Assembly (NCBI GenBank): GCA_013387205.1 | Contig: WARV01000009.1 | Coordinates: 667 to 64,666, forward strand | Direction of reading: 5' to 3' | From: Patescibacteria group bacterium | GTDB taxonomy: Bacteria; Patescibacteriota; Doudnabacteria; UBA920 | DNA: 64,000 bases | In this document: positions 2,599-52,078 of the stretch, one piece after another | Numbering within the stretch: the stretch's first letter is position 1 | Layout: each line of letters begins with the position of its first letter | Notes under the pieces: generated by a model | Database searches by the model: none | What the model was told of the DNA's origin: nothing | What the model saw: only the letters and a program-made list of their open reading frames with translations | Position numbers and translations under genes: made by a program

Positions 2599-2611
2599 GG
2601 AAAGTGCCAAA

Positions 2612-3190
2612 ATGTTACCTACAAATCACTCACCTAAACTTTTTTACAATTTTGATTTAAAAAGGATACCTCAATTTGATGGTGATTTTTATTATGATGT
2701 TTTTGAAATAAATCAAACTTGGCACGACATAGAATACTTGAACTTCTTATTTCACAAATCATTTGGGCAAATGGCAAGTGAAACGAATAACCAAGAGCAA
2801 ATCATGTTGTTCCAATCTTCCAAAATTCTCAGTTCATATTTTTATATCCATTTGGAGATAATCAGAAAAATTTTCGAAGTGAAACTTCTTCGAAAAATTT
2901 CTGATCCGAAATTTAAAAGCCTGTTTAACACTTTTGGAGATAAATTTTGGGACTCTATAGCAATTGCAAGAAATAATATTCTGATCCATAAGGAAAAACC
3001 CAATTATATAAAGAAGCAGTTAACAGTGGAAGGAACTGACCCAGAGTCGTTTATTGTAATAGAAATTAATTACAAAGATCCCTCAGGTAAACTGCAAAAG
3101 ATAGCTTTGCGTCCACTTCAAGATATTGCAATGGCTCAAAAATTTTTGTCTGAGTTTCAAAACCTATTTAATGCAACTTCATTTAATTAG
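2612..3190 (+). CDS. hypothetical protein with HEPN-like Rx4-6H motif (IARNNILIH)
   Basis: 192-aa ORF 13 nt after the 841-aa gene. The R-NNILI-H motif lies in its C-terminal half, as in HEPN domains. The assignment rests on this motif only. Confidence 0.45.
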   Translation: MLPTNHSPKLFYNFDLKRIPQFDGDFYYDVFEINQTWHDIEYLNFLFHKSFGQMASETNNQEQIMLFQSSKILSSYFYIHLEIIRKIFEVKLLRKISDPKFKSLFNTFGDKFWDSIAIARNNILIHKEKPNYIKKQLTVEGTDPESFIVIEINYKDPSGKLQKIALRPLQDIAMAQKFLSEFQNLFNATSFN

Positions 3191-3197
3191 GCCTAGT

Positions 3198-3704
3198 TTA
3201 AAGTCCTAATAATTGTTTTTTCTTTGCGGTAAATTCTGCTTCTGTAATAATACCTTTGTCTTTTAATGTAGCTAACTGCTCTAGTTCAGAAACATTACCG
3301 CCGTTAGACTTTTTACCACTCCTTAATTCTTCTATTGCTTGTTGCCATGGGGCAAAGTAGTTTGCTTGCACCCTGGCAAGCTCACCCATGGCAAGTGAGC
3401 TGTTAAACAGAGAGAAGTACATAAAGTGTGCCGTTTGTTCTTTGCCTTCTGCTCTATAAGTGACATACATATCGCTGGCTGTACTTGCGCCCTTTGCGGT
3501 CCTGACATTAATAATATCTTTAACAGGGATAGAAACAAGTTTTTTACTTTTTCTATCTTGGTGATATAATTCTGTGGTAGTTAGAACTAGCTCTCCTCTG
3601 GTATTTGAGAAGAAACTTTTTTTATACTGAATCTTACCTTCTTTTTTGATGATGTTTTCTTGGTCCATTGGAATAAATATTCTTTCCGCCGGCGTAGATA
3701 ACAC
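3198..3704 (-). CDS. PH-like (bPH) + C-terminal SHOCT domain protein
   Basis: The C-terminus SELEQLATLKDKGIITEAEFTAKKKQLLGL matches the SHOCT short C-terminal oligomerisation motif. The N-terminal ~120 aa is beta-rich, like bacterial PH domains. The start may be the internal Met (MDQENI). Confidence 0.6.
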   Translation of the reverse strand: MLSTPAERIFIPMDQENIIKKEGKIQYKKSFFSNTRGELVLTTTELYHQDRKSKKLVSIPVKDIINVRTAKGASTASDMYVTYRAEGKEQTAHFMYFSLFNSSLAMGELARVQANYFAPWQQAIEELRSGKKSNGGNVSELEQLATLKDKGIITEAEFTAKKKQLLGL

Positions 3705-3932
3705 AAGGCCCCACGCCAGCTGGACCTTGCGGTCCCATACCAGTTTCCCGGTATGGCTCGTGAAAGCGCTGGACGTAGGGTCCAGTATCTTTCACGAGTC
3801 TTTTTCACCATGCCAGCGGTTGCCCGCTGGTTTAGGCTACTTTTATAAATTGTTAATGTAATTATACCACTTAATTGTAAGGTTTTAAAGCTCCTTTCTG
3901 CCCTTTGGGCAATGTAGACAGTACCGCAAGGT

Positions 3933-4442
3933 TCAAGATAAGTCCAGGTTGTTTTCGGGTTCATCATTATCATCCGGAAGAGCCCCTGAAATTTGATTTA
4001 AATCTGGCCTGTTCTTTCGGTAAGCAAAAACGTAATTTATCGCTCTATCTATCGACTCTTTTTGTTCTGGTGTCAGTTCAGGGTCGTTAGCCACTTGCTT
4101 TAACAAATAATCGTAATGCTGCCTTTCTTTCTGGCCGAGCGGTACCATATACACGCTGCGCTTTTGAATGTAGCGAGGGTCGTTGTTAGAAAGAAAATAT
4201 TTAATAGCGCCAAAATTACCTTCTCTAATTAACTTCATTAAGGCAGCTTCTGCAATATCAATATATTGGTTTCGGCCAAGCTCAAGAGCCACTTCAGCAT
4301 CTTGTCTGAACTTTTTGTTATCTCTAATCCAGCGATAGAATGTCGCCCTGGCTACTCCGACTTTTTTACAAGCAAAACTTACATTGGGGCTATCAGCAAG
4401 GATTTTAAGTAGTTCGGATTTTTCACGACTACGTCTCGCCAT
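3933..4442 (-). CDS. phage terminase small subunit-like HTH protein
   Basis: The N-terminal helix-turn-helix VGVARATFYRWIRDNKKFRQ is typical of TerS/HTH_Tnp-like phage proteins. The gene overlaps the downstream ParB-methylase gene by 14 nt, an arrangement common in phage. Confidence 0.5.
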   Translation of the reverse strand: MARRSREKSELLKILADSPNVSFACKKVGVARATFYRWIRDNKKFRQDAEVALELGRNQYIDIAEAALMKLIREGNFGAIKYFLSNNDPRYIQKRSVYMVPLGQKERQHYDYLLKQVANDPELTPEQKESIDRAINYVFAYRKNRPDLNQISGALPDDNDEPENNLDLS

Positions 4443-5823
4443 AAATCTTCACACGCTTTTTGCCAGTGAACTTCTCCCAGCGGTTCATAATAACCTCGGC
4501 GTAGACCGGCGACTTTTCCATAATAAAGCAGCGTCGACCTATGGCTGTTGAGGCGATTAAAGTTGAGCCACTGCCACCGAACGGCTCGAGCACTAATTGG
4601 TTGCGCTTGGTTAAAACTTTGATGTATGGAATAAGAATTTCGATTGGCTTAACCCCAAAGATAATTCCTTGGCCGGAGGATTTTTCGTCTGCGGCATTAA
4701 ATTCAATGAAGTCCGTCGGGCAGTATTTGTTGCCTTTGTTATAACCTTCCCACTGCGGTTTTCCCTGAATAGCAAACAGGGCTGTTTGATATTCATTTTC
4801 TACTAATTCATCTTCTGGTTCTAAGTCTACGCCTAAATGATTCTGGCTGGTGCCGACCATGGCGATGTCGTGCTTGGAGAAAAATTTAAGTTTTGCGGCA
4901 TAGCCTTGGTTACGGTTAGGAAGATGCCAAACCAACATATTGCGGACTTTCCAATGCTGTTCCATGCTGCCCCAAATTTCCCGGAGGTTTTTCCAGTTTT
5001 CATAAACGATAATGGAAAAGTCTTTGTTCTGTACTTTGGCAACATTGTTCATCCAAAGCTCGGTAAAATCTTCCGGCAGACTTTCGGTTTCCAAGTAGCG
5101 GCGATTTTTCTTGGCACCAAAGCCAGTGGTAGATTCACCATTCCTGGTTTTGCCTTTTAAATAATCTAAGCGATACGGAGGGTCAGTCATGACCATGTCA
5201 ATTTTTTGGTCGCCAACTAGCGAAAGCATATCAGCTTCAATGGTGCTGTCACCGCATTTTAATCTTGATCCATCGAGATCATAAATGTCTCCTTTTTTAA
5301 CGGTAATAGTTTCAATTTGGAGTTTCTCTAATTCTTTTTCTAAGTCAAATTGTGTTTCGACTTTTTCCTCCTCAAAGATTTTATCTAAATCTTCCGAGCC
5401 AAACCCGACGTCCGCTAAAAAGCTTTCGTCATAGGCAGCCAGCAAGTCAAAGTCGAACTCACCTTGATTTTTGTTGAGCCTTAAGTTAAGTTCCTTTTCT
5501 TTGTCCAAATCTGGAATGGAAATGAACACTACTGGCACTTGGTCGTAGCCAAGTTGCTTCATCACTTCAAGACGGAAGTGACCACCGATGACAACATTCT
5601 CACGGCCAGGTGCATTGTTGACCACTAATGGGTCAACGACGCCAAATCGTTTTAAAGATTCTTTTAATTGTTCCTCCGCAGTCTTGTCGTGTTTGCGGGG
5701 ATTATACTCAGCCGGTTTAAGTCCGGTAACTGGCACATACTTGATGTGCAACTGCAAGTTGTCTTGCATATGTATTTTTATTTCTGAGCCAAAAGGCTCG
5801 TTATTAATAAAACGCCCAGGCAC
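4429..5823 (-). CDS. ParB-like nuclease domain fused to N6-adenine/N4-cytosine DNA methyltransferase (DPPY type, beta class)
   Basis: The N-terminal ParB/Srx-like region carries GGHFRLE. The DPPY catalytic motif IV (MTDPPYRLDY) is followed C-terminally by the AdoMet motif I (LEPFGGSGSTLIAS). This is the architecture of phage-encoded orphan methylases. Confidence 0.85.
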   Translation of the reverse strand: MPGRFINNEPFGSEIKIHMQDNLQLHIKYVPVTGLKPAEYNPRKHDKTAEEQLKESLKRFGVVDPLVVNNAPGRENVVIGGHFRLEVMKQLGYDQVPVVFISIPDLDKEKELNLRLNKNQGEFDFDLLAAYDESFLADVGFGSEDLDKIFEEEKVETQFDLEKELEKLQIETITVKKGDIYDLDGSRLKCGDSTIEADMLSLVGDQKIDMVMTDPPYRLDYLKGKTRNGESTTGFGAKKNRRYLETESLPEDFTELWMNNVAKVQNKDFSIIVYENWKNLREIWGSMEQHWKVRNMLVWHLPNRNQGYAAKLKFFSKHDIAMVGTSQNHLGVDLEPEDELVENEYQTALFAIQGKPQWEGYNKGNKYCPTDFIEFNAADEKSSGQGIIFGVKPIEILIPYIKVLTKRNQLVLEPFGGSGSTLIASTAIGRRCFIMEKSPVYAEVIMNRWEKFTGKKRVKIYGET

Positions 5824-5909
5824 TCACCACACTTTTGTGTGATAGATGCCTGGGCGTTCCAGGTCTAAGCTCGATTTAGTTTTTTACTTTACTTATTTTG
5901 CTGCTACTC

Positions 5910-6164
5910 CTAAGTTAAACGTAACGTAATCATCGGGGGAGATGACTTAGGTACCAGGGTAACGTATGGCCATTTAAAATTACAGAACGGGCAAGTGGTG
6001 TACGTAACGCTGCTGCAAGAAGCTTGAAATTCTAAATCCACATTAAAAGATTTACCGAATTTATCTTTGCGAATACGAAAACTATGGCTGCTAGTTTTCT
6101 GCAGTACAATCTCTGCGCAGTCCGGACACCTGACTAATGTTTTTTCCTGATATTGGTTTTTCAT
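5910..6164 (-). CDS. small zinc-ribbon protein (CPDC..CPFC)
   Basis: Paired CxxC motifs (VRCPDCAEIV ... TCPFCNF). I chose the start at the internal Met (MKNQYQ). The ORF track extends it to 6206. Confidence 0.4.
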   Translation of the reverse strand: MKNQYQEKTLVRCPDCAEIVLQKTSSHSFRIRKDKFGKSFNVDLEFQASCSSVTYTTCPFCNFKWPYVTLVPKSSPPMITLRLT

Positions 6165-6589
6165 TTTGTTTCTATTTCCGTTGACTCTATATATACATAT
6201 TATCATTAAACCAAAGATAAATAATTTTAATTCAAAATACTCTGGTTTTTTCTATGTGGCTGCAAACAGCTTTTTATGCGGTTTGTGACCGTATATGGCG
6301 TTTACAAAACCGTATCGTGGTGGTTTGTAAGCCCTTTTATGGGGTTTGGGTATTTTATACAAATCTTCAATTTATTGGGGTTTTTGAATTATTCAGCTAT
6401 CTAGCATAACCTGCTTATCCACAAAAATAATCCCAAATCGTATGGCCTTAGGAGTGTCTCATTTGTCTCATGCTCAATTAGCTTATGAGTATAATAGCTG
6501 CTAGAATATAAGGGAAATATGAAAACTACTCTTGAAAAATCAAAGGTTGCTGCTCTTTTAATATCTATAGCTGTCTTATTTGTGTTTTT

Positions 6590-7024
6590 TTGGGACACTA
6601 TTACTTTGGTAGCCACTTCATAAAGTACCTTTGGGTTTTCGACGGTGTATTATTTACCTTCCTGCTGTTTGTCATTATGGCTATCACTGGGTTTTTCATT
6701 CTAAACGCTCTGTTCTTAGTTGCTGCTGAATTGTCTTTGCTGATATTCTTAGCCCAAGCCTATTGCGCAGTCCCGCAACGTACAGCGCAGGCAGACCTGG
6801 CTTTAAAAACTTTGGTTGTTGCTGGACTCATTTATATTGCCGCAAAGTTCATTTATGAGTTCCGTAATAAAGCTCAAGATAAGTTAAAGGCTATTCAAAA
6901 AGAAAAGTGGTCAAAAGAAAAAGTTTTCTTTGTTGTCTGTTTTGCAGTTTTTACAGTATGGTTTATTTGGCAGATTTGCTTAGTCATGTCGCCAATTGTG
7001 TCCGACTTGTGTGTTTTCCGGTAG
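6590..7024 (+). CDS. hypothetical membrane protein (3-4 TM)
   Basis: Hydrophobic helices throughout. It sits directly upstream of the RHS C-terminal toxin fragment and could be an orphan immunity protein. Confidence 0.45.
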   Translation: MGHYYFGSHFIKYLWVFDGVLFTFLLFVIMAITGFFILNALFLVAAELSLLIFLAQAYCAVPQRTAQADLALKTLVVAGLIYIAAKFIYEFRNKAQDKLKAIQKEKWSKEKVFFVVCFAVFTVWFIWQICLVMSPIVSDLCVFR

Positions 7025-7093
7025 TGGGGAGCGTATAGCTATTTTTTTCAACAAAACCAAAACGGCTTCTTAAAATCCTCCAGCACCATTTCT

Positions 7094-8050
7094 ATGGTAG
7101 AAGTTATAACAAAAACCCAAAATACTGAAAGAACCTTTGAAATCCTTCAAGGTTCGCTCTGGTGCTCCAAACCTACTGCGAAGGTTGTTGATTCAGGACA
7201 TGGAGCAGGTGTCGACCAGCGTATTTTCGCAGGCCAAATACTCGACGCTGATACCAACTTGACCTACATGAATGCGAGATACTACGAGGGGAACCGTGGA
7301 CAGTTCCTTTCACAAGATCCGTCGTTCTTAGCAATAGGTGATCCTGTAAAATTCAAAGCTTTGACTGGACAAGACATGATTGATCAGTTGTCTGACCCGC
7401 AGCAGCTAAATTCATATTCATATGCAAGGAATAATCCTTTAAGGTATAATGATCCTACTGGTAATATAAATTGGGATACATTATGGCACCCCTCACAGTA
7501 TCCATCTGTATTAGGCCAAGCAGGTATATGGTATGGAGCTTCTCTTGGATTTAATGTAACTGGTCACCCATTAACAGGAGCTTTGATGCAGCATTCGCTT
7601 ACAGTAGGTCCGAGGGATGTAAATATTAACCAACAAAATCAAAAGTCCTGGGGTAATGCAATTACCCAAATCCAAAATTCTTCTGATTTCACTAATGCCT
7701 TGAACGGTTATTTGTCCACAGACGGTAAAAATGGATCTATTAATCAAACTTATGATGCGTTACAAGGAAGTGTTGTGTTCAATAGCGGTGATTTGAAAAC
7801 AGGTGTACATGGTACCTATTCTACTGCGGTTCAAGGAACTCAAAATCAAGACGGTACTTGGAATTTAAATGTTGCTATCACTGATAGATATGATTATACT
7901 TATCAGAATTATAATGGGGGCGAGGGTGGCAAGACATTAACTGGCGCTAACAATGCAGCAAACTTTAGTCAGAACCAGGGAGTTATTAGCAACTATGGCG
8001 TGACTTTCTCAATAAGTATGCCAAATTATAATCCAAATAAGAAAAAATAA
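7094..8050 (+). CDS. orphan RHS/YD-repeat C-terminal fragment: RHS repeat-associated core tail + novel C-terminal toxin domain
   Basis: YMNARYYEGNRGQFLSQDP ... LNSYSYARNNPLRYNDPTGN matches the conserved end of the RHS repeat-associated core (ARYYDPxxGRFxSxDP ... NxYxYxxNNPxxxxDPxG). The following ~190 aa are a Q/N/T/G-rich domain of unknown type. No RHS body lies upstream in frame. Confidence 0.75.
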   Translation: MVEVITKTQNTERTFEILQGSLWCSKPTAKVVDSGHGAGVDQRIFAGQILDADTNLTYMNARYYEGNRGQFLSQDPSFLAIGDPVKFKALTGQDMIDQLSDPQQLNSYSYARNNPLRYNDPTGNINWDTLWHPSQYPSVLGQAGIWYGASLGFNVTGHPLTGALMQHSLTVGPRDVNINQQNQKSWGNAITQIQNSSDFTNALNGYLSTDGKNGSINQTYDALQGSVVFNSGDLKTGVHGTYSTAVQGTQNQDGTWNLNVAITDRYDYTYQNYNGGEGGKTLTGANNAANFSQNQGVISNYGVTFSISMPNYNPNKKK

Positions 8051-8052
8051 TT

Positions 8053-8526
8053 ATGAAAAAAATAACTAAATATATAATTGGCGGATTGTGTGTACTTGTG
8101 TTAGTTGGAGCAATTTACTTTTTTAGTTTGATTGCTAAGGATGGATTTGGACCAGGTTCGGCAGACTATACTTATAAAATAGCAGGCAGTTGTAACTTAA
8201 CCAGATCCAGTGCTCACGTAGTAGTTATAGGATGTAGTGGAGTAGGGGTTCCCCCAGAAATTATAGAAACTGGGTGGAATGATAGTTATTTACTCGCAGT
8301 AAATAACCCGATCAAAGGTTATCCGAACACTTATTCTGATCCGGATCCATCAGTTAAAAATTGGTGGATAGTAGATTTAAAGAATAAAAAGGCTTACGGT
8401 CCGATGATGACAGAATATGAATTTAATCAGAAAAAAGCATCTTTGGGTATAACAGATATACAGTTAATGCCGATTGAACAGGCAAAAACAAAAGGTACTT
8501 GGGTTAATGGAGACTTCAAGAACTAA
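8053..8526 (+). CDS. putative cognate immunity protein (N-terminal signal anchor)
   Basis: It starts 2 nt after the toxin stop, has one N-terminal TM helix and is 157 aa. This is the position and size expected for a polymorphic-toxin immunity gene. Confidence 0.5.
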   Translation: MKKITKYIIGGLCVLVLVGAIYFFSLIAKDGFGPGSADYTYKIAGSCNLTRSSAHVVVIGCSGVGVPPEIIETGWNDSYLLAVNNPIKGYPNTYSDPDPSVKNWWIVDLKNKKAYGPMMTEYEFNQKKASLGITDIQLMPIEQAKTKGTWVNGDFKN

Positions 8527-8528
8527 CT

Positions 8529-8566
8529 AAAAGAGAGCTCATATGAGCTCTCTTTTAGTTTTTGAT
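8529..8566 (+). terminator. intrinsic terminator hairpin + T-run
   Basis: AAAAGAGAGCTCAT-ATG-AGCTCTCTTTT is followed by AGTTTTTG immediately after the immunity gene stop. Confidence 0.7.
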
Positions 8567-8671
8567 GTTTAGCTGGATGTATTTCCAACCTGCGAAAATA
8601 ATCTTACATCTTTCATCTTCCTTTTGCTTTCCCCGACTAAGTTATTAAACTGGAGAAGGCTAATGATGTCA

Positions 8672-8708
8672 CAAGGGGAACCCTGTATCTGATACAGGGT
8701 TCCCCTTG
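8672..8708. terminator. perfect 17-bp stem hairpin (CAAGGGGAACCCTGTATC/GATACAGGGTTCCCCTTG)
   Basis: Lies between convergent genes (8526+ and the CDF gene stop at 8754-). Probably a bidirectional terminator. Confidence 0.55.
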
Positions 8709-8753
8709 TTTGATAATCGCTTGATTCTTGCTACTTACTACTTGCTACCAGTT

Positions 8754-9611
8754 TCAGTGTTCATGCGGCGGGCAGGCGGTGGTTTCCACTTCAATGGTCG
8801 AGTGGTTTATTTTGAATTTATCTTGCAGGTTCTGCTTAATCTCTTTTACGATTTGCAGGTTTTTTTCCGTGTCGAAAACTTTGGGCACCATATGGCACAC
8901 TAAAGCAGTAGCTTTGGAAGAAATTGTCCAAACGTGCAAATCGTGCAGGCTTAAAACATCCGGGTGCGACAGGATTTGGGCCTGGATATCGCCCAGGTTA
9001 ATTTCTTCAGGTACGCCTTCCAGCAAAACGTGCAGGGCTTTGTTTAATATCTCCCAGCTGGAAAACAGCAGCATGGCACCAATAATGATGCTGATAAAAG
9101 GGTCTACTATGGTTTTTCCGGTAAAGTAAATGATGCCGCCGGCAACAAGTGCGCCAATAGAAGCGATTACGTCATTAGCCATATTCAAATACGCGCTCCT
9201 GACGTTAAGATCGCTGCGGTCTTTGTAAAATATCAGCGCCACGGCTCCGTTGACTAAAATTCCAAAAGACGCCACTATCATTACCCAGCTTCCTTCCACT
9301 CCCTGCGGATGGAGGATTCTCTGGTAAGCCTGGTAAAAAATATACAGGGCGGCAAAAATCAAAATCAGGCTGTTTATGAAAGCCGCGATTATCGTAATTT
9401 TGCCATAGCCGTAAGTGTGCTCGTGCGTGGCCCGCCGCTTGGAAATTTTTTGCGCCGTAAAGGAAACCACGAGGCTCAAAGAGTCGGTTAAATTATGCCC
9501 GGCATCCGAGACCAGGGCCAAGCTGCCGCTGATTATTCCGGTGATAAGTTCAAAAATCGCAAAAGAAGTGTTTAGTACCAAACTGGCTTTAAATTTTGTT
9601 TCCAATTTCAT
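8754..9611 (-). CDS. cation diffusion facilitator (CDF) family metal efflux transporter
   Basis: Six TM helices and the CDF signature region around HEHTYGYGK, plus a C-terminal cytoplasmic domain. Start set at MKLETKF (9611). The longer track ORF would read into the MITE copy. Confidence 0.8.
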   Translation of the reverse strand: MKLETKFKASLVLNTSFAIFELITGIISGSLALVSDAGHNLTDSLSLVVSFTAQKISKRRATHEHTYGYGKITIIAAFINSLILIFAALYIFYQAYQRILHPQGVEGSWVMIVASFGILVNGAVALIFYKDRSDLNVRSAYLNMANDVIASIGALVAGGIIYFTGKTIVDPFISIIIGAMLLFSSWEILNKALHVLLEGVPEEINLGDIQAQILSHPDVLSLHDLHVWTISSKATALVCHMVPKVFDTEKNLQIVKEIKQNLQDKFKINHSTIEVETTACPPHEH

Positions 9612-9620
9612 AAATAGTTG

Positions 9621-9785
9621 TAGAAGTAATCTCGAAATCTCATTTTGGCTGCAATCCCAGAATTTTAGCCATTCGGCCAAAAATTTTTCTCAGCTTAGCT
9701 TCCAGCTAAACATCAAAAAATATTTTGCCCGACTGTCATAAAATTTTGGAATTTCGCCTGAAAAGCAGCTTTCGAAACTACTTCA
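9621..9785. repeat. MITE-like palindromic element copy A (termini TAGAAGTAATCTCGAAA / TTTCGAAACTACTTC)
   Basis: Shares the core CATTTTGGCTGCAAT(T/C)CCAGAATTT ... AAACATCAAAA ... GGAATTTCGCCTGAAAAGCAG with copies at 11.1, 13.9, 15.5, 24.5, 47.2, 59.0 and 59.5 kb. It is intergenic between the CDF and ferric-reductase genes. Confidence 0.8.
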
Positions 9786-30976: not shown

Positions 30977-33900
30977 CTAGTTTACCGTGAAAGCACTGGA
31001 ATAAGCTGTTCCGTAGGCAGTTTGTAGCTTGATCTGCCAGCTACCGGTGCTAAGCAATATATTGATGATTCGGATGGTGTTCAGAGACTGGATGGTGAGT
31101 CCAGCAACACCGTTCGTTCCACCGTCATTCGGATAGCAGGTGTTGGTGCCACTGACGCAGAACCACACCTTTGTGCTTGGTGTAAAACCCGTGCCGTAGA
31201 TGTACCCTGAGAACTGGACACCACCCACTGGCTGATTGTCCCAGTAGTAGCCCCCTGTTCCAGAATTGATCGTTGGCGCCACGCCGTTGACCGTAACACT
31301 GCAACTATTGGAAGTAGTGGTATTGCTGCTGTCCTTAACGGTAACGTTGTAGGTGAATGTTCCAGCGTCGTTTGGCAATACAGTAGCGCTGTTGCTTGAC
31401 TGGTAAGATCCTCCGTTGAGGCTGTACAGATAACCGCCAGTGCCGCCTGTTGCGTTCCCAATAAGGGACGAGCCGTTTCCTAAGTTAACAGGATTCGGCG
31501 ACAGGTAGCAGCTTACGGAAAGCGGAGCAGGAGGCGGCGCTGTCACGGTCAAGGTCGGATAGAGGTATTGGTCAACCCCTCCGCCCTGAGCGTGTAGCGT
31601 TAATGTGTAAGTCCCTGTTGGGGTAGATCCAGTAGTCTGCAAAGTCAGGGTAAAACTTGCCCCGCTTGTTGGACCGATGGAAAATACCAAAGACGAAGGA
31701 CTGGCAATTGTGGTATTTGCAGGTAAACCGGAAACAAATACTGTCACCTGATAGGTAAAGTTGTTGACGGGTGTAAGGTTTAAGTCAAACCCGACAGAAT
31801 CTCCAGCCTGTGCAGACTTGTTTCCGTTGAGCATGGTAAAAGTGTAAGTCGGAGTTGGAGTACTAGCCAGATTCACCGCAAAACTCACTGTTCCGCCAGC
31901 AGACAGGGTCTGGGTGGCAGCAGGAGTGATGGAATTGATGGTGTAGCCAGAAGGAGCCGTGCAGGACAAGGTGTAACTGCCTGCAGCCTGGCTGTTCAAG
32001 GTCGCCGGTGCCGAAATGTTCGTACCGTTAAGCGTACAACTAACCGTTCCTGCATAACCGCTGACTGTGACATTGACGGTGCCGGCGGAGGAAGACTGAC
32101 CCCCACTATATAGATTCGCAATCTCAGCCACGCTCAAAACCCGGCTGAAAATTGCAAGGTCGTCTAGCAAACCATCGAAACTGCGGTAAGCGCTGTTAAC
32201 ATACCAGCTACCGAGCAAGACGTTGGAAAGATCCAAAGATGGAGTGGTGGTAAAGGTGTTGGTTTTGTCCAAAACCCCATCAATGTAATACTTTATGGTC
32301 TTGTTGTTGACATCTATTGTGGTGGCAACATGGTGCCAGTTCTGGTCACTGATGGCAGAAGACACATAGTTTACGTCCCAACCTGGGTCAGGAATTCCAT
32401 ACACATACGAGCTTAGCCTGTCATTGTAGTAACCGACACGCGTGGTCATCATGAAAGCAAACTGGCCATTTGAACCAAAGCCGTTAGAACCAAACATGGC
32501 CCTATCCGTGTGGACAGTGGTAAAAGAAGTGGGCTTTATCCAGGCCGTGATTGTCACGGCATTGTTCCCAGTTCCATTGACGTCTCCAACGGTAATACGG
32601 CTATTGGAAGCATTGGAAAGCAATGCTCCTTGGCCGAACTTACCATAGCTGGTGCCATAGGTTACACTGGTGTCATTGCCGTTATGTCCGCCTTTGATAT
32701 CATTACTGTTTCCTTCAAAGCGGTAGTAAGCAAGCAGGTTCGGGTCATTGTAGAGCGAGGTGGAGAAGAGCTCGGTGGGACCGGAAGGCGCAGCCGTGAC
32801 GGTAAATGCATTGGAAAGATTGGACCATGTACCTGTACCGTTGCGTACCTTCACTTTCCAATCACCAGCAGAAAGGTTAATGCTAGAAATTACCGCTTGA
32901 CTGCCATCGATATTGGCAGCGACGGTAATTCCCGCGGGTTGCTGGTAGCAAGTGGTGTATCCGGGATCCTGGCAAAACCACACTTGTAGATTGCCAGGAA
33001 CTTGGTCAAAGTTGAGTCCGCTGACAATTCCATCGAAAGGAGTTCCAGCGGTAGCGGAACTGCTTGTGACGCCGAAAAGGTTGACAGAAGGCTGGCCGAG
33101 TTGGATTTGGTTGACACAGGTTGTGTGGGTTTGGTTACCCAGAGAGTCTGTGACATACAAATCCACGCCTGACAAGTATCCACCGTTGGTATAAGTGGTG
33201 GTGACCGAATTTCCTGTTCCGACAGCGCCGTTCTCCCAACTTATGGAGTGAGAAGATGAGCCACCGGAGACGGTAGCCGTGTAGGTCACTGGCGTATTAA
33301 CTGAAAGGATGCTGCTGTTCGGAGAGCATACCGCAGTCAACGAAGGGTTAATGACGAGGTTTTGGCTATTAGACAAAGACCCGCCAGGCCCGTTCCTTAA
33401 CTGAAACTGGTATGTATCCGCTTGCAACGGAGCAGTAAAACTGCCGACATAAGAAGTGGTCGTGGCATCGATCTTAGTTCCAAGACACCCGTTTGAACAT
33501 CCAGGTCCATAAATTAGACCTTGTATGTTCGCAGGATCCACAGAGCTAGCAGTGGCATACACATTGAAATTGTTGCCAACTGTCATGCCGCCAGATACTC
33601 CAACTGCGTTAATAGTGGGGGTGGTACTGGTTGGTGTCCCGCTATACAAATTCGCAATCTCAGCGTCTGTTGGCATGCGGTTAAAGAACGCGACGTCATC
33701 CATGTAACCGTTCCAGTACCGGTAGTTGTTAGTGGCGAATACCCCCAAGCTAGTAGGGGCGCCCGTTGCTATGCTTTCGGTATTGGTGAAGGTTGCCGAA
33801 TTATCGAGTACGCCGTTGATGTAGATCTTGGTAACACCGGTGGTAGCGTTGTAGGCTACGTCCCACATGTACCAAGTATTGGTTGTCAAGGTGGTGTTGG

Positions 33901-35545
33901 TCGATGATAAAACATTTGCTTTTGTATCGTAAAGCTCCAGATGGAGCTTGAATTGCGTCGCTGAAGTTCCTCTGATGTGCCAGAAAAGCTGCCCCAACGT
34001 GGACCACGTAGGCGAAGACCATATGGTTTCGTCGTAAGGGTAGCCTGGGGCAACAAGGACGTTAAACCATCCGTGTATCCAGAGGATGTTACCGCTGGGA
34101 GGTATTGCCGATAAGCCAAGGGCGATATTGGAAGAATTGCCGTTGAAGAGCGCCCCCTGCCCAAATTTCCCATAGCTTGAACCGTACGCCATGTTGGTGT
34201 CGCTGCCGTTGTGGCCGCCTTTGGTATCGTTACTGTTTCCTTCAAAGCGGTAGTAAGCAAGCAAGCTCGGGTCAGTGTAGAGCGAGGTGGAGAAGAGCTC
34301 GGTGGGGCCGGAACCACCCGGAACAGGCGGCTCAATTGCCTGGATGGTTAATGTGGAAGAGGGAGTAGCGCCCACACTACCGTTATTATCCTGAAAAACC
34401 GTTTGAAGTTTTGCAGAATAAGTACCAAGCGGTGTTTGAGAAGGTACGTAGATGAGACTCTTAGCTGGTACAGTGGCGTTGGCCGACAGCACTTTATTGC
34501 CGTCTGAAAATGAGAGTATACTAGCTGGTGTTGATACTACGTTTCCTTGAGCGGTTCCTGCAAAGTTTAGCATGCTCTGTAGGTTAAACGGAATTTCTCC
34601 CATACCACCTTGAGTAATGGAAATAGAAGATGGAACCGATGTTAGGTTTACTTTGGGATTTGTAGTTGAAATTCCTGCTGCAGAAATGTTGTTATCCGGG
34701 GTATTGGCCGTGTTAGTTAGCCATTGAATTGGGTCAGTAAAGCCATATGTCTCCTGCCAGGTCGATTTGGTCTGAGGTATATAGTCAGTATCGTACCCTA
34801 AGCCCAATTTTTGATTAACCATTGGTATTGAAGGGAAGTTGGGATTAGTATTTGGAACAAAAATCCCTAAATGTAAATGCCTTGCGTTTGCTCCTTCCCA
34901 ATCTCCAATCAGTGCAAATGGTTGCCCAGCGACAATTGGATCATTAAGTTGAAACGGCAGTTTCGTAACAATATTGTAATCCAGTACGTGGCCGTAAACA
35001 CCCCAGAAGAAGTTGTTACTGCCTGCGATTTTGTGTTTAACTAAAATCGCAACGTTGTACTTTCTTATTCCAACACCGCAATTGGGATCTTTCCACTGTA
35101 CCAGATCTTTCATGGTTTCGCATTTTGTTGTGCCCCAATTAGCCAAATCCGTAGATACGTAACCGGACTGGTTGAAGTACCCAGGTGTTGGCGAAGCATC
35201 ACCGCTGATACCTTTACTAACATTAGTAACTATACCATCGGCAATTGCATAGACCGAGTGCCCTATACCATTAGGCGTACCATCTGTGTAGGTAGGGCTG
35301 CTTACAAGCATATCCTGACCCGTGTGATAGAGCTTGGGCCTGTAGCAACCGTGGCCGGTTCCGCCCGGACTTCGCGACAACCAATCACTACATCCATTTT
35401 GATTTCGTGTCGCATCTGCTCCCGCAGGGTTGTAGTAACCAGTTGCACTGACTTGAGTGTGACCAAAGACTTGGTCAAATGCGGACTGTGCTTGAGCCAA
35501 GCCCACAAAGATAACAACCGTGGTCAATAAAATCAACTTTCTCAT
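30977..35545 (-). CDS. giant secreted multidomain surface protein: N-terminal M23 peptidase-like domain, Ig-like/beta-rich regions, two LamG (concanavalin A-like) domains
   Basis: Signal peptide MRKLILLTTVVIFVGLAQA. M23 motifs HTGQD (HxxxD) and ARHLHLGIF (HxH). Two copies of ELFSTSLY(T/N)DP(S/N)LLAYYRFEGNSND(T/I)KGGHNG, typical of Laminin_G_3 starts. Start set at 35545, preceded by the SD AAGAGGAAAAG. Confidence 0.7.
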   Translation of the reverse strand: MRKLILLTTVVIFVGLAQAQSAFDQVFGHTQVSATGYYNPAGADATRNQNGCSDWLSRSPGGTGHGCYRPKLYHTGQDMLVSSPTYTDGTPNGIGHSVYAIADGIVTNVSKGISGDASPTPGYFNQSGYVSTDLANWGTTKCETMKDLVQWKDPNCGVGIRKYNVAILVKHKIAGSNNFFWGVYGHVLDYNIVTKLPFQLNDPIVAGQPFALIGDWEGANARHLHLGIFVPNTNPNFPSIPMVNQKLGLGYDTDYIPQTKSTWQETYGFTDPIQWLTNTANTPDNNISAAGISTTNPKVNLTSVPSSISITQGGMGEIPFNLQSMLNFAGTAQGNVVSTPASILSFSDGNKVLSANATVPAKSLIYVPSQTPLGTYSAKLQTVFQDNNGSVGATPSSTLTIQAIEPPVPGGSGPTELFSTSLYTDPSLLAYYRFEGNSNDTKGGHNGSDTNMAYGSSYGKFGQGALFNGNSSNIALGLSAIPPSGNILWIHGWFNVLVAPGYPYDETIWSSPTWSTLGQLFWHIRGTSATQFKLHLELYDTKANVLSSTNTTLTTNTWYMWDVAYNATTGVTKIYINGVLDNSATFTNTESIATGAPTSLGVFATNNYRYWNGYMDDVAFFNRMPTDAEIANLYSGTPTSTTPTINAVGVSGGMTVGNNFNVYATASSVDPANIQGLIYGPGCSNGCLGTKIDATTTSYVGSFTAPLQADTYQFQLRNGPGGSLSNSQNLVINPSLTAVCSPNSSILSVNTPVTYTATVSGGSSSHSISWENGAVGTGNSVTTTYTNGGYLSGVDLYVTDSLGNQTHTTCVNQIQLGQPSVNLFGVTSSSATAGTPFDGIVSGLNFDQVPGNLQVWFCQDPGYTTCYQQPAGITVAANIDGSQAVISSINLSAGDWKVKVRNGTGTWSNLSNAFTVTAAPSGPTELFSTSLYNDPNLLAYYRFEGNSNDIKGGHNGNDTSVTYGTSYGKFGQGALLSNASNSRITVGDVNGTGNNAVTITAWIKPTSFTTVHTDRAMFGSNGFGSNGQFAFMMTTRVGYYNDRLSSYVYGIPDPGWDVNYVSSAISDQNWHHVATTIDVNNKTIKYYIDGVLDKTNTFTTTPSLDLSNVLLGSWYVNSAYRSFDGLLDDLAIFSRVLSVAEIANLYSGGQSSSAGTVNVTVSGYAGTVSCTLNGTNISAPATLNSQAAGSYTLSCTAPSGYTINSITPAATQTLSAGGTVSFAVNLASTPTPTYTFTMLNGNKSAQAGDSVGFDLNLTPVNNFTYQVTVFVSGLPANTTIASPSSLVFSIGPTSGASFTLTLQTTGSTPTGTYTLTLHAQGGGVDQYLYPTLTVTAPPPAPLSVSCYLSPNPVNLGNGSSLIGNATGGTGGYLYSLNGGSYQSSNSATVLPNDAGTFTYNVTVKDSSNTTTSNSCSVTVNGVAPTINSGTGGYYWDNQPVGGVQFSGYIYGTGFTPSTKVWFCVSGTNTCYPNDGGTNGVAGLTIQSLNTIRIINILLSTGSWQIKLQTAYGTAYSSAFTVN

Positions 35546-35700
35546 ACTTTTCCTCTTTTGCGTTGTGAAGGTGCTAATGGGTTTATACCCACGACTTGCC
35601 CATAAAATTATGAGCAAGATGATGGGAATAATATAAATGTGTGAATTGCGTAGTTGATATGGCTATGTTACAATAAAATACCATCAATAAGACTTAAAAT

Positions 35701-50294: not shown

Positions 50295-51368
50295 TCAACC
50301 TAATACCTGGGCTAATTTTCTGACTCCAACATTTTCTTGAAAGGTCAACGTTCCTTGAATAAAATCTTTTATATCTTTATGTAACTGATTGAGGCTGTTA
50401 AAGTCTAACTCATACCACTCTCCGCCGATATTATATTGTTTATACTTTTTATGTAAGTATCTTTCCAGAATCCAAGCTTTATCAGTCCTATAATAATTGT
50501 AGATTTCAATCTGATTCGGGTTTCCAGTTTGTATATTACTGACGCGCTGTTTCAAATTTTGAGTCACACCGATTTTGAAATTGCTGGTTCCAAGAGAACG
50601 AACTATATAAAGCCCTAATTCATCGTTAGCTACGTCGTACACAACATTCTCAGCAAGGTTGCCTTCTTTATAAACCCGTCCGTTAAGTCTAGCCACACGA
50701 CCAAAACCATCATTCATTAAACTGAACCCCAAATCTTCCAACATCCATTCTTGGGCGTGATAAACCGGATCTTTATCATATTCTTTCAGCACATGGCAAA
50801 CTTTTTTGGCAACAGCGTCCCGGTAGTCGTAACCTTCGTAATTTTCGTGAAACCTGGCCGCTTGTGAAGAATTGGTAGCCACAATAAACCAATTCTCATC
50901 ATTGTCCTTGGTCGTAACCCAATATAGATGTTTAGGCTTTGTATACAAAGCTGCTCGCGTAATTAAATGTTTATTTACTATGTAAGAATCTTCACCTTCA
51001 AAGCTATATAGCTGATTTTTATCATCCAAATCCAGCCATTCGTAAGTATTTTTAACAATGCCGCCACGATAAATAACTCTAACACCAATCATATCTAAGA
51101 ACCTGTCGCAACAGTGGATATCTTGATATTTTAATATGGTATATTTTTTCCTAGTGGAAAACTCCCGGTCTATAGAAAAACGGAATGATTCTCCAAGTAG
51201 CTTTTGAATGCACTCTTTAATGTATGATAAATCATCCGTCTGAGCCATTTCCCATCCACGGACGTCTTTATATGGCAGTTGATACTTAAATTCTGAACGG
51301 TTTAACCTGTGGGCTAAAATCTTGCCATTAGGGTGCGTTATTAGAAATCGTAGGCCTGTGATATACAT
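50295..51368 (-). CDS. T5orf172 (GIY-YIG superfamily, MUG113-like) C-terminal domain protein with unknown N-terminal domain
   Basis: The C-terminus GLYIVRSLGTSNFKIGVTQNLKQRVSNIQTGNPNQIEIY...ERYLHKKYKQYNIGGEWYEL matches the T5orf172 pattern (YKIGxTxNxxxRxxxLxTGxP ... gEWFel). It lies ~70 nt downstream of the intron-containing tRNA. Confidence 0.65.
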   Translation of the reverse strand: MYITGLRFLITHPNGKILAHRLNRSEFKYQLPYKDVRGWEMAQTDDLSYIKECIQKLLGESFRFSIDREFSTRKKYTILKYQDIHCCDRFLDMIGVRVIYRGGIVKNTYEWLDLDDKNQLYSFEGEDSYIVNKHLITRAALYTKPKHLYWVTTKDNDENWFIVATNSSQAARFHENYEGYDYRDAVAKKVCHVLKEYDKDPVYHAQEWMLEDLGFSLMNDGFGRVARLNGRVYKEGNLAENVVYDVANDELGLYIVRSLGTSNFKIGVTQNLKQRVSNIQTGNPNQIEIYNYYRTDKAWILERYLHKKYKQYNIGGEWYELDFNSLNQLHKDIKDFIQGTLTFQENVGVRKLAQVLG

Positions 51369-51438
51369 ATATCTTTCAATTATTGACTAAATAAAAAAAC
51401 AAAAACCACCAAATTTTTGATTTTTAGTGGTTTTTGTT

Positions 51439-51812
51439 TGGCTCGGGAGGTGGGATTCGAACCCACGGCCAATCGATTACACTTATCCTGATGTTTCCAA
51501 AAGGGGTGGACTATATCATCATCCTATTCCAGGTGGCTCGGGAGGTGGGATTCGAACCCATCTCTTACCATCTAAAAATATAGGATGCGAGGCGCTTCGT
51601 TCCAAAGTTTTTAGAACTACTCCCATAAAGGGATAGTCTCTGAACCTTCCCGCCTGTTGAGCGGGCTTGGCTGCTGATTACCATTTTACAGGTTTCCAGC
51701 AATTCACCTCGTTTTTCCATTCCCAATTACTTGGGAAGGCTGCTAATGTTTGATCTCCTTTAGAGCGAGATCAGGTCTACAGTCGATTGCTCTACCGCTG
51801 AGCTACTCCCGA
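51439..51812 (-). tRNA. tRNA-Asn(GUU) interrupted by a 299-nt group I intron (exons 51812-51779 and 51479-51439)
   Basis: The joined exons give a canonical 75-nt cloverleaf: acceptor UCGGGAG/CUCCCGA, D stem GCUC/GAGC, anticodon stem AUCGA/UCGAU, loop CUGUUAA, T stem GUGGG/CCCAC, T loop UUCGAAU, G73 and an encoded CCA. Confidence 0.7.
51480..51778 (-). ncRNA. group I self-splicing intron (IC-like core) in anticodon loop between nt 35/36
   Basis: In the minus-strand reading: P1 candidate CUGU/GCAG, P2 CCCAAGUAAUUGGG, P element AAUUGCUGGAAAC, Q AAUCAGCAGCC, P6 CCCGCUCAACAGGCGGG, R GUUCAGAGACUA, S GAUAUAGUCC, and a terminal G before the 3' exon. The P8 region is enlarged and contains a tRNA 3'-half-like copy (51535-51562). 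Confidence 0.65.
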
Positions 51813-52078
51813 ATATGTTGTTTTATAAATTGCCTGCCTCGATGGCTTTTAAGCTGTTTTTCTCTTATCAAGGCTTGTTGGCGAGTATCAACATTTTCTG
51901 AATATATTAGTTGCCACTCACCATCAAAACTTGAAGTGTATCCCTTAAAAGTATGTTCGTTATGTAGCCTTAAACGCTCTGTTAAATTTTCGGTTTGACC
52001 GATATATATTTTCTTATGTTTTGGATTATAGATAGCGTAAACGCTAAACATTAGTGTCGATTGCTCTACCTCCGCCAT
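51803..52078 (-). CDS. small GIY-YIG nuclease family protein (YhbQ/UPF0213-like)
   Basis: VYAIYNPKHKKIYIGQTENLTERLRLHN is the GIY-YIG motif pair. The 3' end (IRE-stop) overlaps tRNA nt 1-10. The 5' end overlaps a duplicated tRNA 5' fragment. The start may be the second Met (52051). Confidence 0.7.
   Translation of the reverse strand: MAEVEQSTLMFSVYAIYNPKHKKIYIGQTENLTERLRLHNEHTFKGYTSSFDGEWQLIYSENVDTRQQALIREKQLKSHRGRQFIKQHIRE

Follow-up and report, generated by a model that had tools for sequence, protein, structure and literature searches.

Why should a bacterial genome keep the last part of an rhs gene without the rest of it, and what is the domain at the tip of such a fragment equipped to do? 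Both questions are raised by positions 7094-8526 of a 64,000-nucleotide stretch (hereafter the window) of contig WARV01000009.1 from a Patescibacteria group bacterium (assembly GCA_013387205.1), in which an rhs fragment with an unannotated C-terminal domain is followed almost at once by the gene for a small membrane-anchored protein. The region is very likely an orphan toxin/immunity module. The explanation as a whole that is favoured here, with moderate confidence, is that of an orphan rhs toxin/immunity module whose tip resembles colicin M (ColM) and would target lipid II. The architecture of such a module is ordinary, and the novelty, of a moderate degree, lies in its cargo, a probably ColM-like toxin family accompanied by DUF3997 as its candidate immunity.

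The first gene of the pair is an open reading frame (ORF) of 318 amino acids (aa) with an ATG start (7094..8050, + strand), the product of which is identical to NCBI protein P0001, encoded on a 73,159-bp contig, and consists of a new N-terminus, an RHS core tail and a toxin domain. The initial annotation had this ORF opening within the RHS core tail with no YD/RHS body upstream, and both a family match and tblastn bear this out. The match is to TIGR03696 (Rhs_assc_core, NCBIfam) and defines the RHS repeat-associated core tail at aa 43-123 (7220..7462, +; E=1.1e-14; score 54.7 bits, cutoff 32.5). The two core-tail motifs that had been quoted, ARYYEGNRGQFLSQDP and LNSYSYARNNPLRYNDPTGN, are indeed found in the 318-aa ORF, and the end of the second coincides with aa 123. 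The core ends ...NNPLRYNDPTGN, in keeping with the PxxxxDPxG form of the core boundary, and its terminus, NNPLRYNDPTG|N, is the expected point of autoproteolysis and the boundary with the toxin. The matches lie far beyond chance, with relatives down to E=5e-84 and, for the family profile, 469 cluster representatives at E<=1e-10.

How much of an rhs gene is present? The fragment retains about 95 core codons and none of the YD shell. Within the 318-aa ORF a Pfam search gave no match to PF05593 or PF25023, the families of the YD/RHS repeats, and when 14 RHS proteins, including some of about 2000 aa, were aligned by tblastn with the whole 64-kb window the only RHS-like DNA was that at 7178-8029, with alignments that start at nt 7178-7226 and never earlier than 7178. 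It follows from the missing repeats and from the position at which the alignments start that ORF 7094-8050 is a fragment and not a full RHS protein. At the protein level RHS homology begins only at aa ~29-45. Residues 1-36 (7094..7201, +) represent the truncation junction, an in-frame extension that has no homologue (no match before aa ~36 by blastp-short against 268 relatives) and in which neither a signal peptide nor a transmembrane (TM) segment was found. Since homology starts only at this point, residues 1-36 match nothing and no other RHS sequence exists within the window, the ORF is a 5'-truncated, orphan rhs fragment.

Behind this shared tail the tips are polymorphic. The core tail shares 50-69% identity with those of many RHS proteins in which other toxin domains follow; some of these homologues bear the label Patescibacteria, and their tips include Ntox44, HNH, CHAP, SLT, Tox-REase-7, ADPRT and others. 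The tip in the window is a 195-aa C-terminal toxin domain (7463..8047, +) belonging to an unannotated family with a probable distant relation to the ColM catalytic domain; Gln, Asn, Thr and Gly make up 43% of its residues, and it has no match in Pfam, NCBIfam or PHROG. The initial annotation, which recognised no toxin fold here, was therefore right as far as the curated libraries go. On the fold it needs revising, since the domain is probably a distant colicin M-like one and not an unknown fold.

What links the tip to ColM? The structure prediction that had been proposed for the C-terminal domain yielded a confident AF2 model (pLDDT 82.7, pTM 0.79), and when this was compared by Foldseek with 350,542 PDB chains the first and second ranks were taken by the two entries for PaeM, a colicin M-like bacteriocin of P. 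aeruginosa (4g75 and 4g76; E 4e-3, prob 0.95 and 0.89), with the next match at E=0.36. Comparison of profiles points the same way. A ColM profile was assembled from six sequences, namely PDB-verified ColM, pectocins M1 and M2 and syringacin M together with annotated Serratia and Pantoea genes, and hhalign matched it to a 144-member profile of the toxin family with 84% probability and E 7e-6 over 70 columns, which include DxYD and cover the catalytic half. The score of 37.7 compares with 11.9+-2.2 (maximum 19.4) for 200 column-shuffled ColM profiles and with 11.2 for the reversed ColM profile. Within the aligned region lies a near-invariant motif, D264-R-Y266-D267-Y268 (7883..7897, +), which aligns to D226-K-Y228-D229-F of ColM and contains the most conserved positions of the toxin family (D264 in 99% of the 144 members, Y266 in 95%, D/N267 in 99% and F/Y268 in 100%). 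In ColM itself D226, Y228 and D229 are essential, and D226 binds a divalent cation (PMC8469651). Homology of the toxin domain to the ColM fold is thus probable on the strength of profile and model, with the link a remote one.

There are, however, several results that count against this relationship or against a ColM-like activity. The superposition on PaeM is weak (TM-score 0.35, root-mean-square deviation 7 A), and PaeM is the sole representative of the ColM group among the 50 listed Foldseek matches, where ColM and syringacin M are absent. Pfam Colicin_M (PF14859) does not match the window protein at E<=0.1, nor is it among the families listed for 131 relatives at E<=1, and a shallow hidden Markov model built from 10 family sequences returned only noise from the PDB sequences (E>=0.12), without reaching ColM. 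Absent, too, is the H-R of the DxYDx5HR signature (H235 and R236 in ColM): all 142 motif-bearing members lack it, and no conserved His or Arg was found among them within 22 residues past the motif. These residues are essential in ColM, where mutants retain less than 2% of activity, and their loss from PmnH is thought to inactivate that domain (PMC8469651).

The missing H-R also forms the starting point for a different reading of the tip, in which the ColM fold has been kept but the chemistry has changed. A rewired active site would then be directed at a different target on the membrane surface, which might be an undecaprenyl-linked precursor of teichoic acid or capsule or the head group of a phospholipid; alternatively, the domain would kill by sequestering lipid II without hydrolysing it. 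Such an outcome is unlikely, yet it accounts for the conservation of a different polar set in the family and for a homology signal that is strongest only across the C-terminal 70 columns; it also has a parallel in catalytically dead pectocin M1, which can still harm cells, and in the existence of motif-degenerate ColM domains (PMC5821083). Set against it is the fact that no residues are better conserved than the cation-binding Asp and the Tyr and Asp beside it, which argues for retention of metal-dependent phosphoester chemistry, and that membrane-anchored extracytoplasmic partners fit a site of the lipid II type. The further conserved polar residues of the toxin family are H167/S168, D233, H239, N286/N287 and Q293, and from their conservation it might be that they stand in for the missing H-R. 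Hydrolysis of lipid II by the tip is plausible, with the odds slightly against it. In ColM the reaction is a Mg2+-dependent hydrolysis of lipid I/II that gives undecaprenol and 1-PP-MurNAc-peptide (PMC8469651), by a catalytic mechanism that is still unresolved.

The family to which the tip belongs is a large one. An exhaustive profile search, started from 10 trimmed domains and counted in clusters at 50% identity, gave 1029 cluster representatives at E<=1e-3, of which 469 remain at E<=1e-10. The best 144 full-coverage members include 13 that exceed 1000 aa and 121 of no more than 520 aa. RHS repeats were present in all nine of the long carriers tested, the N-termini of which are varied (DUF6443, DUF6531, Ig-like, Gly_rich_2), and most of the complete long carriers start with a Sec signal peptide, with no N-terminus typical of type VI secretion systems (T6SS). 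Sec signal peptides are likewise found in at least 20 of 105 Met-initiated short relatives. The presence of these signals on long carriers and short relatives alike means that the toxin domain is habitually exported. Other searches gave little: a word-indexed homologue search with the toxin domain alone returned only 2 proteins, a scan of GTDB representatives with toxin patterns and a scan of viral contigs each found no match, and a metagenome scan returned only the L002 contig, described below.

Some of the short relatives have an arrangement of their own. In P0008, P0141, P0150 and P0157, and in about 16 more, a Sec signal peptide is fused straight to the start of the core tail, the toxin follows and there is no YD shell; P0157, which reads ...ALAADTNYRFTGKPLD where the signal peptide joins the core-tail start, serves as an example. 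This arrangement suggests that, even with no YD shell, the RHS-associated core tail (TIGR03696) can work by itself as a pro- or processing module.

If the domain is a toxin, what protects its producer? The 157-aa signal-anchored protein that had been noted 2 nt downstream is confirmed, the TAA of the fragment at 8048-8050 being followed by 'tt' and then by the ATG at 8053. This candidate immunity gene (8053..8526, +) encodes a DUF3997 protein, with a PF13162 match at aa 66-137 (E=8.6e-9; score 36.1 bits, cutoff 25), a single N-terminal hydrophobic helix as TM anchor (aa 8-26, nt 8074-8130) preceded by a Lys-rich N-terminus, and two invariant cysteines, C47 and C61. Prediction places the N-terminus inside and the C-terminus outside, with a beta-rich extracytoplasmic domain. 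In locus L091 a DUF3997 gene 48% identical to that of the window (E=6e-45) follows, at a distance of 5 nt, the RHS gene for P0126, which carries the closest toxin domain, and PF13162 is also matched by the orthologues P0122, P0123 and L091_151. A word-indexed homologue search with the 157-aa partner returned 3 proteins only, and a literature search on DUF3997 returned nothing.

The pairing of toxin and DUF3997 thus recurs, and elsewhere in the toxin family other partners take its place. The toxins P0004 and P0007 are partnered by members of a 169-aa family that has one TM helix and two cysteines, P0003 by a protein with four TM helices followed by a member of the 169-aa family, and P0006 by a protein with three TM helices; across the related loci all of the candidate partners are membrane proteins, which, like the Sec signal peptides of the short relatives, favours a site of action outside the cytoplasm. 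An hhalign comparison of DUF3997 with the 169-aa family gave 18% and then 51% probability, arising in part from the TM helix. There is tight linkage in the window (a 2-nt spacer), DUF3997 stands beside the closest toxin, and other sub-clades have other partners, such that partner type co-varies with toxin sub-clade in the pattern expected of toxin/immunity pairs. The immunity proteins of ColM toxins are of comparable types, comprising Cmi, PmiB/BmiB (single TM, two cysteines) and PmiA (four TM helices) (PMC5821083), and the mix of partners in the window toxin family mirrors these. No sequence similarity of the 157-aa protein to Cmi/YebF was found, though its topology and two cysteines resemble the Cmi/PmiB type.

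On the other side, the model of the DUF3997 partner is mediocre (pLDDT 67.8) and Foldseek found it no match among solved folds, Cmi/YebF and BamE included. The immunity reading is limited, too, by a DUF3997 gene that lies two genes downstream of an RHS tail bearing a toxin of another kind. The locus concerned, L007 (2-1787), has an RHS tail that carries another tip; this is followed by a 103-aa membrane protein and that in turn by a DUF3997 gene, which shares 50% identity with that of the window. By eye the tip looks LysM-like at its start. The DUF3997 gene may be immunity of the orphan kind, or it may open a further module that the contig end cuts off. Taking linkage, co-variation and predicted topology together, the DUF3997 protein is best regarded as the candidate immunity protein for the window toxin.

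Where do other copies of the module reside, and do they explain how an orphan might be used? Two of them occupy the classical orphan position. P0003 (L002) lies after a 2059-aa SpvB/FG-GAP/RHS/Ntox44 protein and a small gene, and P0007 (L005) after a 1968-aa protein of the SpvB/FG-GAP/RHS/Ntox44 type and a small gene. In L091 the tail and toxin instead stand at the C-terminal end of P0126, an RHS protein that has at least 1875 aa and the gene of which loses its 5' end at the contig edge; here tail and toxin are 54% identical to those of the window over 272 aa. Other copies, on the contigs of L006 (P0006), P0002 and P0005, are isolated orphans beside serine recombinases or transposases. At L006 4709-5884 and 3161-4579 and on the P0002 and P0005 contigs the genes beside them encode Resolvase+Recombinase proteins, a DDE transposase or a TrwB/DUF87 ATPase, which hints that orphan modules of this toxin family travel on mobile elements. 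It is these isolated relatives that the window copy resembles, with phage-type genes 1.3 kb away.

The initial annotation also held that orphan modules are substrates for recombination into a full-length rhs gene. This stands up among the relatives, for in L005 the first 221 nt of the orphan match an internal stretch of the main rhs core at 92% identity, a block that, from its sequence, would provide the homology needed for replacement of the tip; in L002 the identity between the orphan and the main rhs core is only 70-76%. For the window copy, by contrast, a role in recombination is something that we infer. A point against it is that there is no full-length rhs gene within the 64-kb window, and that, over this distance, no such gene with its immunity gene stands upstream of the orphan.

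The absence of an rhs gene from the window is also what lends some weight to the notion that the locus is an immunity-only relic, in which the toxin fragment is dead, no recombination into rhs takes place and selection maintains the DUF3997 gene against armed neighbours. In addition, the toxin ORF is without a signal peptide, shell or recognisable start context, similar isolated orphans (L006, P0002 and P0005 contigs) do adjoin recombinases or transposases rather than rhs genes, and in L007 the DUF3997 gene is detached from a toxin of the window type. Yet the toxin reading frame is intact across 280 homologous codons, with all family-conserved residues kept, which is unexpected for a decaying relic, and the core segment that has been retained is precisely what recombination needs, as L005 illustrates. 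A relic is accordingly rather unlikely. A further proposal, that the 318-aa protein is itself a stand-alone mini-toxin released by lysis or by an unknown exporter, is very unlikely. It can draw on P0008, P0150, P0157 and P0141, in which a signal peptide, core tail and toxin appear to work without a YD shell, and on a weak promoter-like site at 7048-7076 ahead of the gene; but neither a signal peptide nor a TM segment is present in the window ORF, the first 36 residues of which are unique, the match of the promoter-like site is no better than chance, and a ColM-type enzyme cannot reach its substrate from the cytoplasm.

For the orphan module with a ColM-like tip, the following sequence of events is envisaged. 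Recombination or insertion would have left the last ~95 rhs core codons fused to an intact toxin domain, followed by the cognate immunity gene and a terminator, in a low-GC patch beside phage-derived genes. The full-length parent would have been a Sec-exported RHS protein with its tip encapsulated within the YD shell, from which the tip would be freed through autoproteolysis at the NDPTG|N boundary. Once released, the tip would have its site of action on the outside of the target's cytoplasmic membrane, where the metal-binding Asp of D-x-Y-D-[FY] may hydrolyse the pyrophosphate linkage of lipid II or of a related undecaprenyl-linked precursor, the cleavage of lipid II leading to a block in wall synthesis. 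The DUF3997 domain, held outside the membrane by its one TM helix, would protect the producer at the same place in the manner of Cmi, PmiB and BmiB. Within such a scheme the window copy would serve as an immunity gene and as a silent spare tip, swappable into a full-length rhs gene by way of its retained core; as it lacks the shell and signal peptide, it is probably unable to deliver the toxin itself.

A broader proposition, somewhat less likely than not, is that the toxin domain represents a large, database-invisible branch of the ColM fold (>1000 clusters) with a rewired site that has kept D-x-Y-[DN]-[FY] and lost H-R, that DUF3997 is its dedicated immunity family, and that the domain has been recruited by Sec-exported RHS proteins and by mini proteins of the signal peptide-tail-toxin kind in uncultivated bacteria. 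If this is true, and if the rewired site cleaves lipid II or another undecaprenyl-linked precursor, then attack of the ColM type reaches beyond the proteobacterial bacteriocins, and DUF3997 gains its first proposed function, as immunity at the outer face of the membrane. An abundant and unannotated toxin family would be given a testable mechanism, ColM-like attack on lipid-linked cell-wall precursors, and ColM-fold toxins would be placed on RHS and Sec-secreted proteins, far outside the TonB-dependent bacteriocins by which they were defined. A toxin family without the H-R half of the signature would furthermore constitute a natural test of what the ColM fold needs for activity.

What surrounds the module in the window? 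The two genes are closed by a strong intrinsic terminator (8525..8560, +) with a perfect 18-bp palindromic stem and a following T-run. A second perfect palindrome, with 19-nt arms and a 1-nt loop (ACAAGGGGAACCCTGTATC / GATACAGGGTTCCCCTTGT), is present at 8671-8709, between the module terminator and a convergent cation-efflux gene (8754-9680, -), and is probably the terminator of that gene or a bidirectional one. A search for flanking repeats around the module found only short, chance-level matches besides the two terminator palindromes. The flanking cation diffusion facilitator (CDF) transporter, scanned through GTDB, gave matches of no more than 42% identity from many phyla and no synteny.

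On the other side, 1.3 kb upstream of the module, is a phage-derived gene pair (3933..5823, -) that encodes a terminase-small-like helix-turn-helix (HTH) protein and a ParB_N-DNA methyltransferase fusion, assigned by Pfam, by phrog_498 (E=3e-79) and by terS phrogs. The GC content is 0.389 over 2600-8600 as against 0.44 for the rest of the window, and together with the adjoining phage-derived pair this lower value places the module in a low-GC accessory patch. A LOOT RNA (RF03000) is encoded at 3722-3838 (-) with 87.3 bits against a gathering score of 46.4, flanked by a SHOCT-domain ORF (3198-3704) and the terminase-small-like HTH ORF (3933-4442), with the ParB_N-DNA methyltransferase (4429-5823) beside them. 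The LOOT region has the look of a phage-derived block that stands by itself, no further phage genes being present in its vicinity; a literature search for the motif matched only an author's name.

Directly upstream of the module is a 144-aa ORF with a TTG start and three predicted TM segments (6590..7024, +), the relation of which to the module is uncertain. The suggestion that it is a leftover immunity gene found no backing, in that it has no family match and no similarity to the partner genes of the related loci. It is in frame with the orphan rhs ORF, the two being separated by a single TAG at 7022-7024, and it might be asked whether both were once one gene, or by read-through of the TAG still are, with a membrane N-terminus, an RHS tail and a toxin. 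This is extremely unlikely: any two ORFs would share a frame by chance in one case out of three, a T-run and a terminator-like hairpin (7007-7038) stand between these two, the linker and first 36 aa are free of homologues, and no relative has such a multi-TM N-terminus. In another frame an ATG at 6520 begins MKTTLEKSKVAALLISIAVLFVFF, and a 1-nt shift at a T7 run near 6585 would join this frame to ORF 6590-7024; this frame break could be a sequencing error, a pseudogene or slippage.

Signals for expression are uninformative and, to that extent, do nothing to strengthen the case for the orphan module. Promoter-like sites are fewer in the window than in shuffles, and a Shine-Dalgarno (SD)-like sequence is missing from 21 of 23 well-supported window genes, the upstream regions of which are A/T-rich instead. 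As so many well-supported genes are without an SD sequence, its absence was rejected as evidence against expression of the module; the lack is a genome-wide property, which may be of use in placing the organism. An alternative genetic code was also considered and rejected, because long ORFs are intact under table 11.

Two further features of the window lie at a distance from the module. ORF 30977-35617 (-), which encodes the one other large protein of the window, was entertained as the missing RHS body and rejected, its 1546-aa product being a Laminin_G_3/ConA-like surface protein without RHS repeats. Over two stretches of ~250 aa this protein shares 35% identity with the N-terminal region of P0134, an RHS protein of 2704 aa that carries the window toxin family; surface-domain modules are thus common to the genome and to RHS proteins of this sort. 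The second is a group I intron (RF00028, 87.6 bits) that splits a tRNA gene missed by ARAGORN (51422-51810, -; intron core 51487-51762). The exons provide the acceptor TCGGGAG...CTCCCGA, a D-arm and the T-arm GGTTCGAATCC followed by GCCA, and after splicing in silico tRNA calls are obtained, with an anticodon that is ambiguous around GTA. The gene has a GIY-YIG-like ORF (51803-52078, -) on one side and a T5orf172/MUG113 ORF (50295-51368, -) on the other.

How, finally, does the module compare with systems that are already known? The nearest to its toxin is the ColM family (PF14859: ColM, PaeM, PflM, syringacin M, pectocins M1 and M2), which provides the best fold match, a significant profile-profile match over the catalytic half with D-x-Y-D-[FY] present in the toxin family, an extracytoplasmic site of action that the window toxin would share, and a similar mixture of immunity partners with either a single TM anchor and two cysteines or four TM helices. 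The window toxin family differs in that it is undetected by PF14859, lacks the H-R five residues past the motif and has an extra N-terminal helical segment. Whereas the ColM bacteriocins have a TonB-box and a receptor-binding domain, the window family is carried by RHS proteins or signal peptides, and where ColM is matched by Cmi/YebF (PF13995) the window toxin has DUF3997. The general idea of cryptic ColM-fold tips is not new, since there are precedents in T6EC1, a T6SS effector with a cryptic ColM-fold tip, and in a 'novel Colicin M-like domain' paired with BamE-like immunity proteins (eLife). Both were missed by sequence annotation and found by structure or sensitive profiles, and both are polymorphic toxin tips with membrane-anchored periplasmic immunity proteins. 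Their carriers, however, are T6SS proteins or cystatin-like lipoproteins as opposed to RHS proteins, and their immunity is DUF943 or BamE-like as opposed to DUF3997, and the eLife domain might be of the same family as that of the window. In the literature searched, the carriage by RHS proteins, the pairing with DUF3997 and the size of the family appear to be undescribed.

A functional parallel is offered by TelC of Streptococcus intermedius, reportedly an LXG lipid II phosphatase of the type VII secretion system (T7SS), said to have appeared in eLife in 2017. TelC is reported to be a contact- or secretion-delivered toxin of monoderm bacteria, with lipid II as the substrate that it degrades on the outer side of the membrane and a membrane-associated extracellular protein as its immunity. 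Its fold and delivery system are unrelated to those considered here, and no similarity to the window toxin was detected; the likeness would reside in extracellular attack on lipid II combined with membrane-associated immunity.

For the architecture, the closest models are the enterobacterial orphan rhs modules of E. coli and Salmonella, which are said to have been described by Jackson in 2009 and Koskiniemi in 2014. These consist of a core remnant ending at the DPxG boundary, a variable toxin and a tightly linked immunity gene. The window reproduces this plan, with its 5'-truncated core, DPxG boundary, variable toxin and linked candidate immunity gene, and its relatives in L002 and L005 sit directly downstream of a main rhs gene with which they share core DNA. 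The window copy departs from the enterobacterial arrangement in having no adjacent rhs gene within 64 kb and in adjoining phage-derived genes, and the carriers of its family are Sec-exported RHS proteins of the SpvB/FG-GAP or DUF6443 type and not the PAAR/VgrG-linked proteins of the T6SS.

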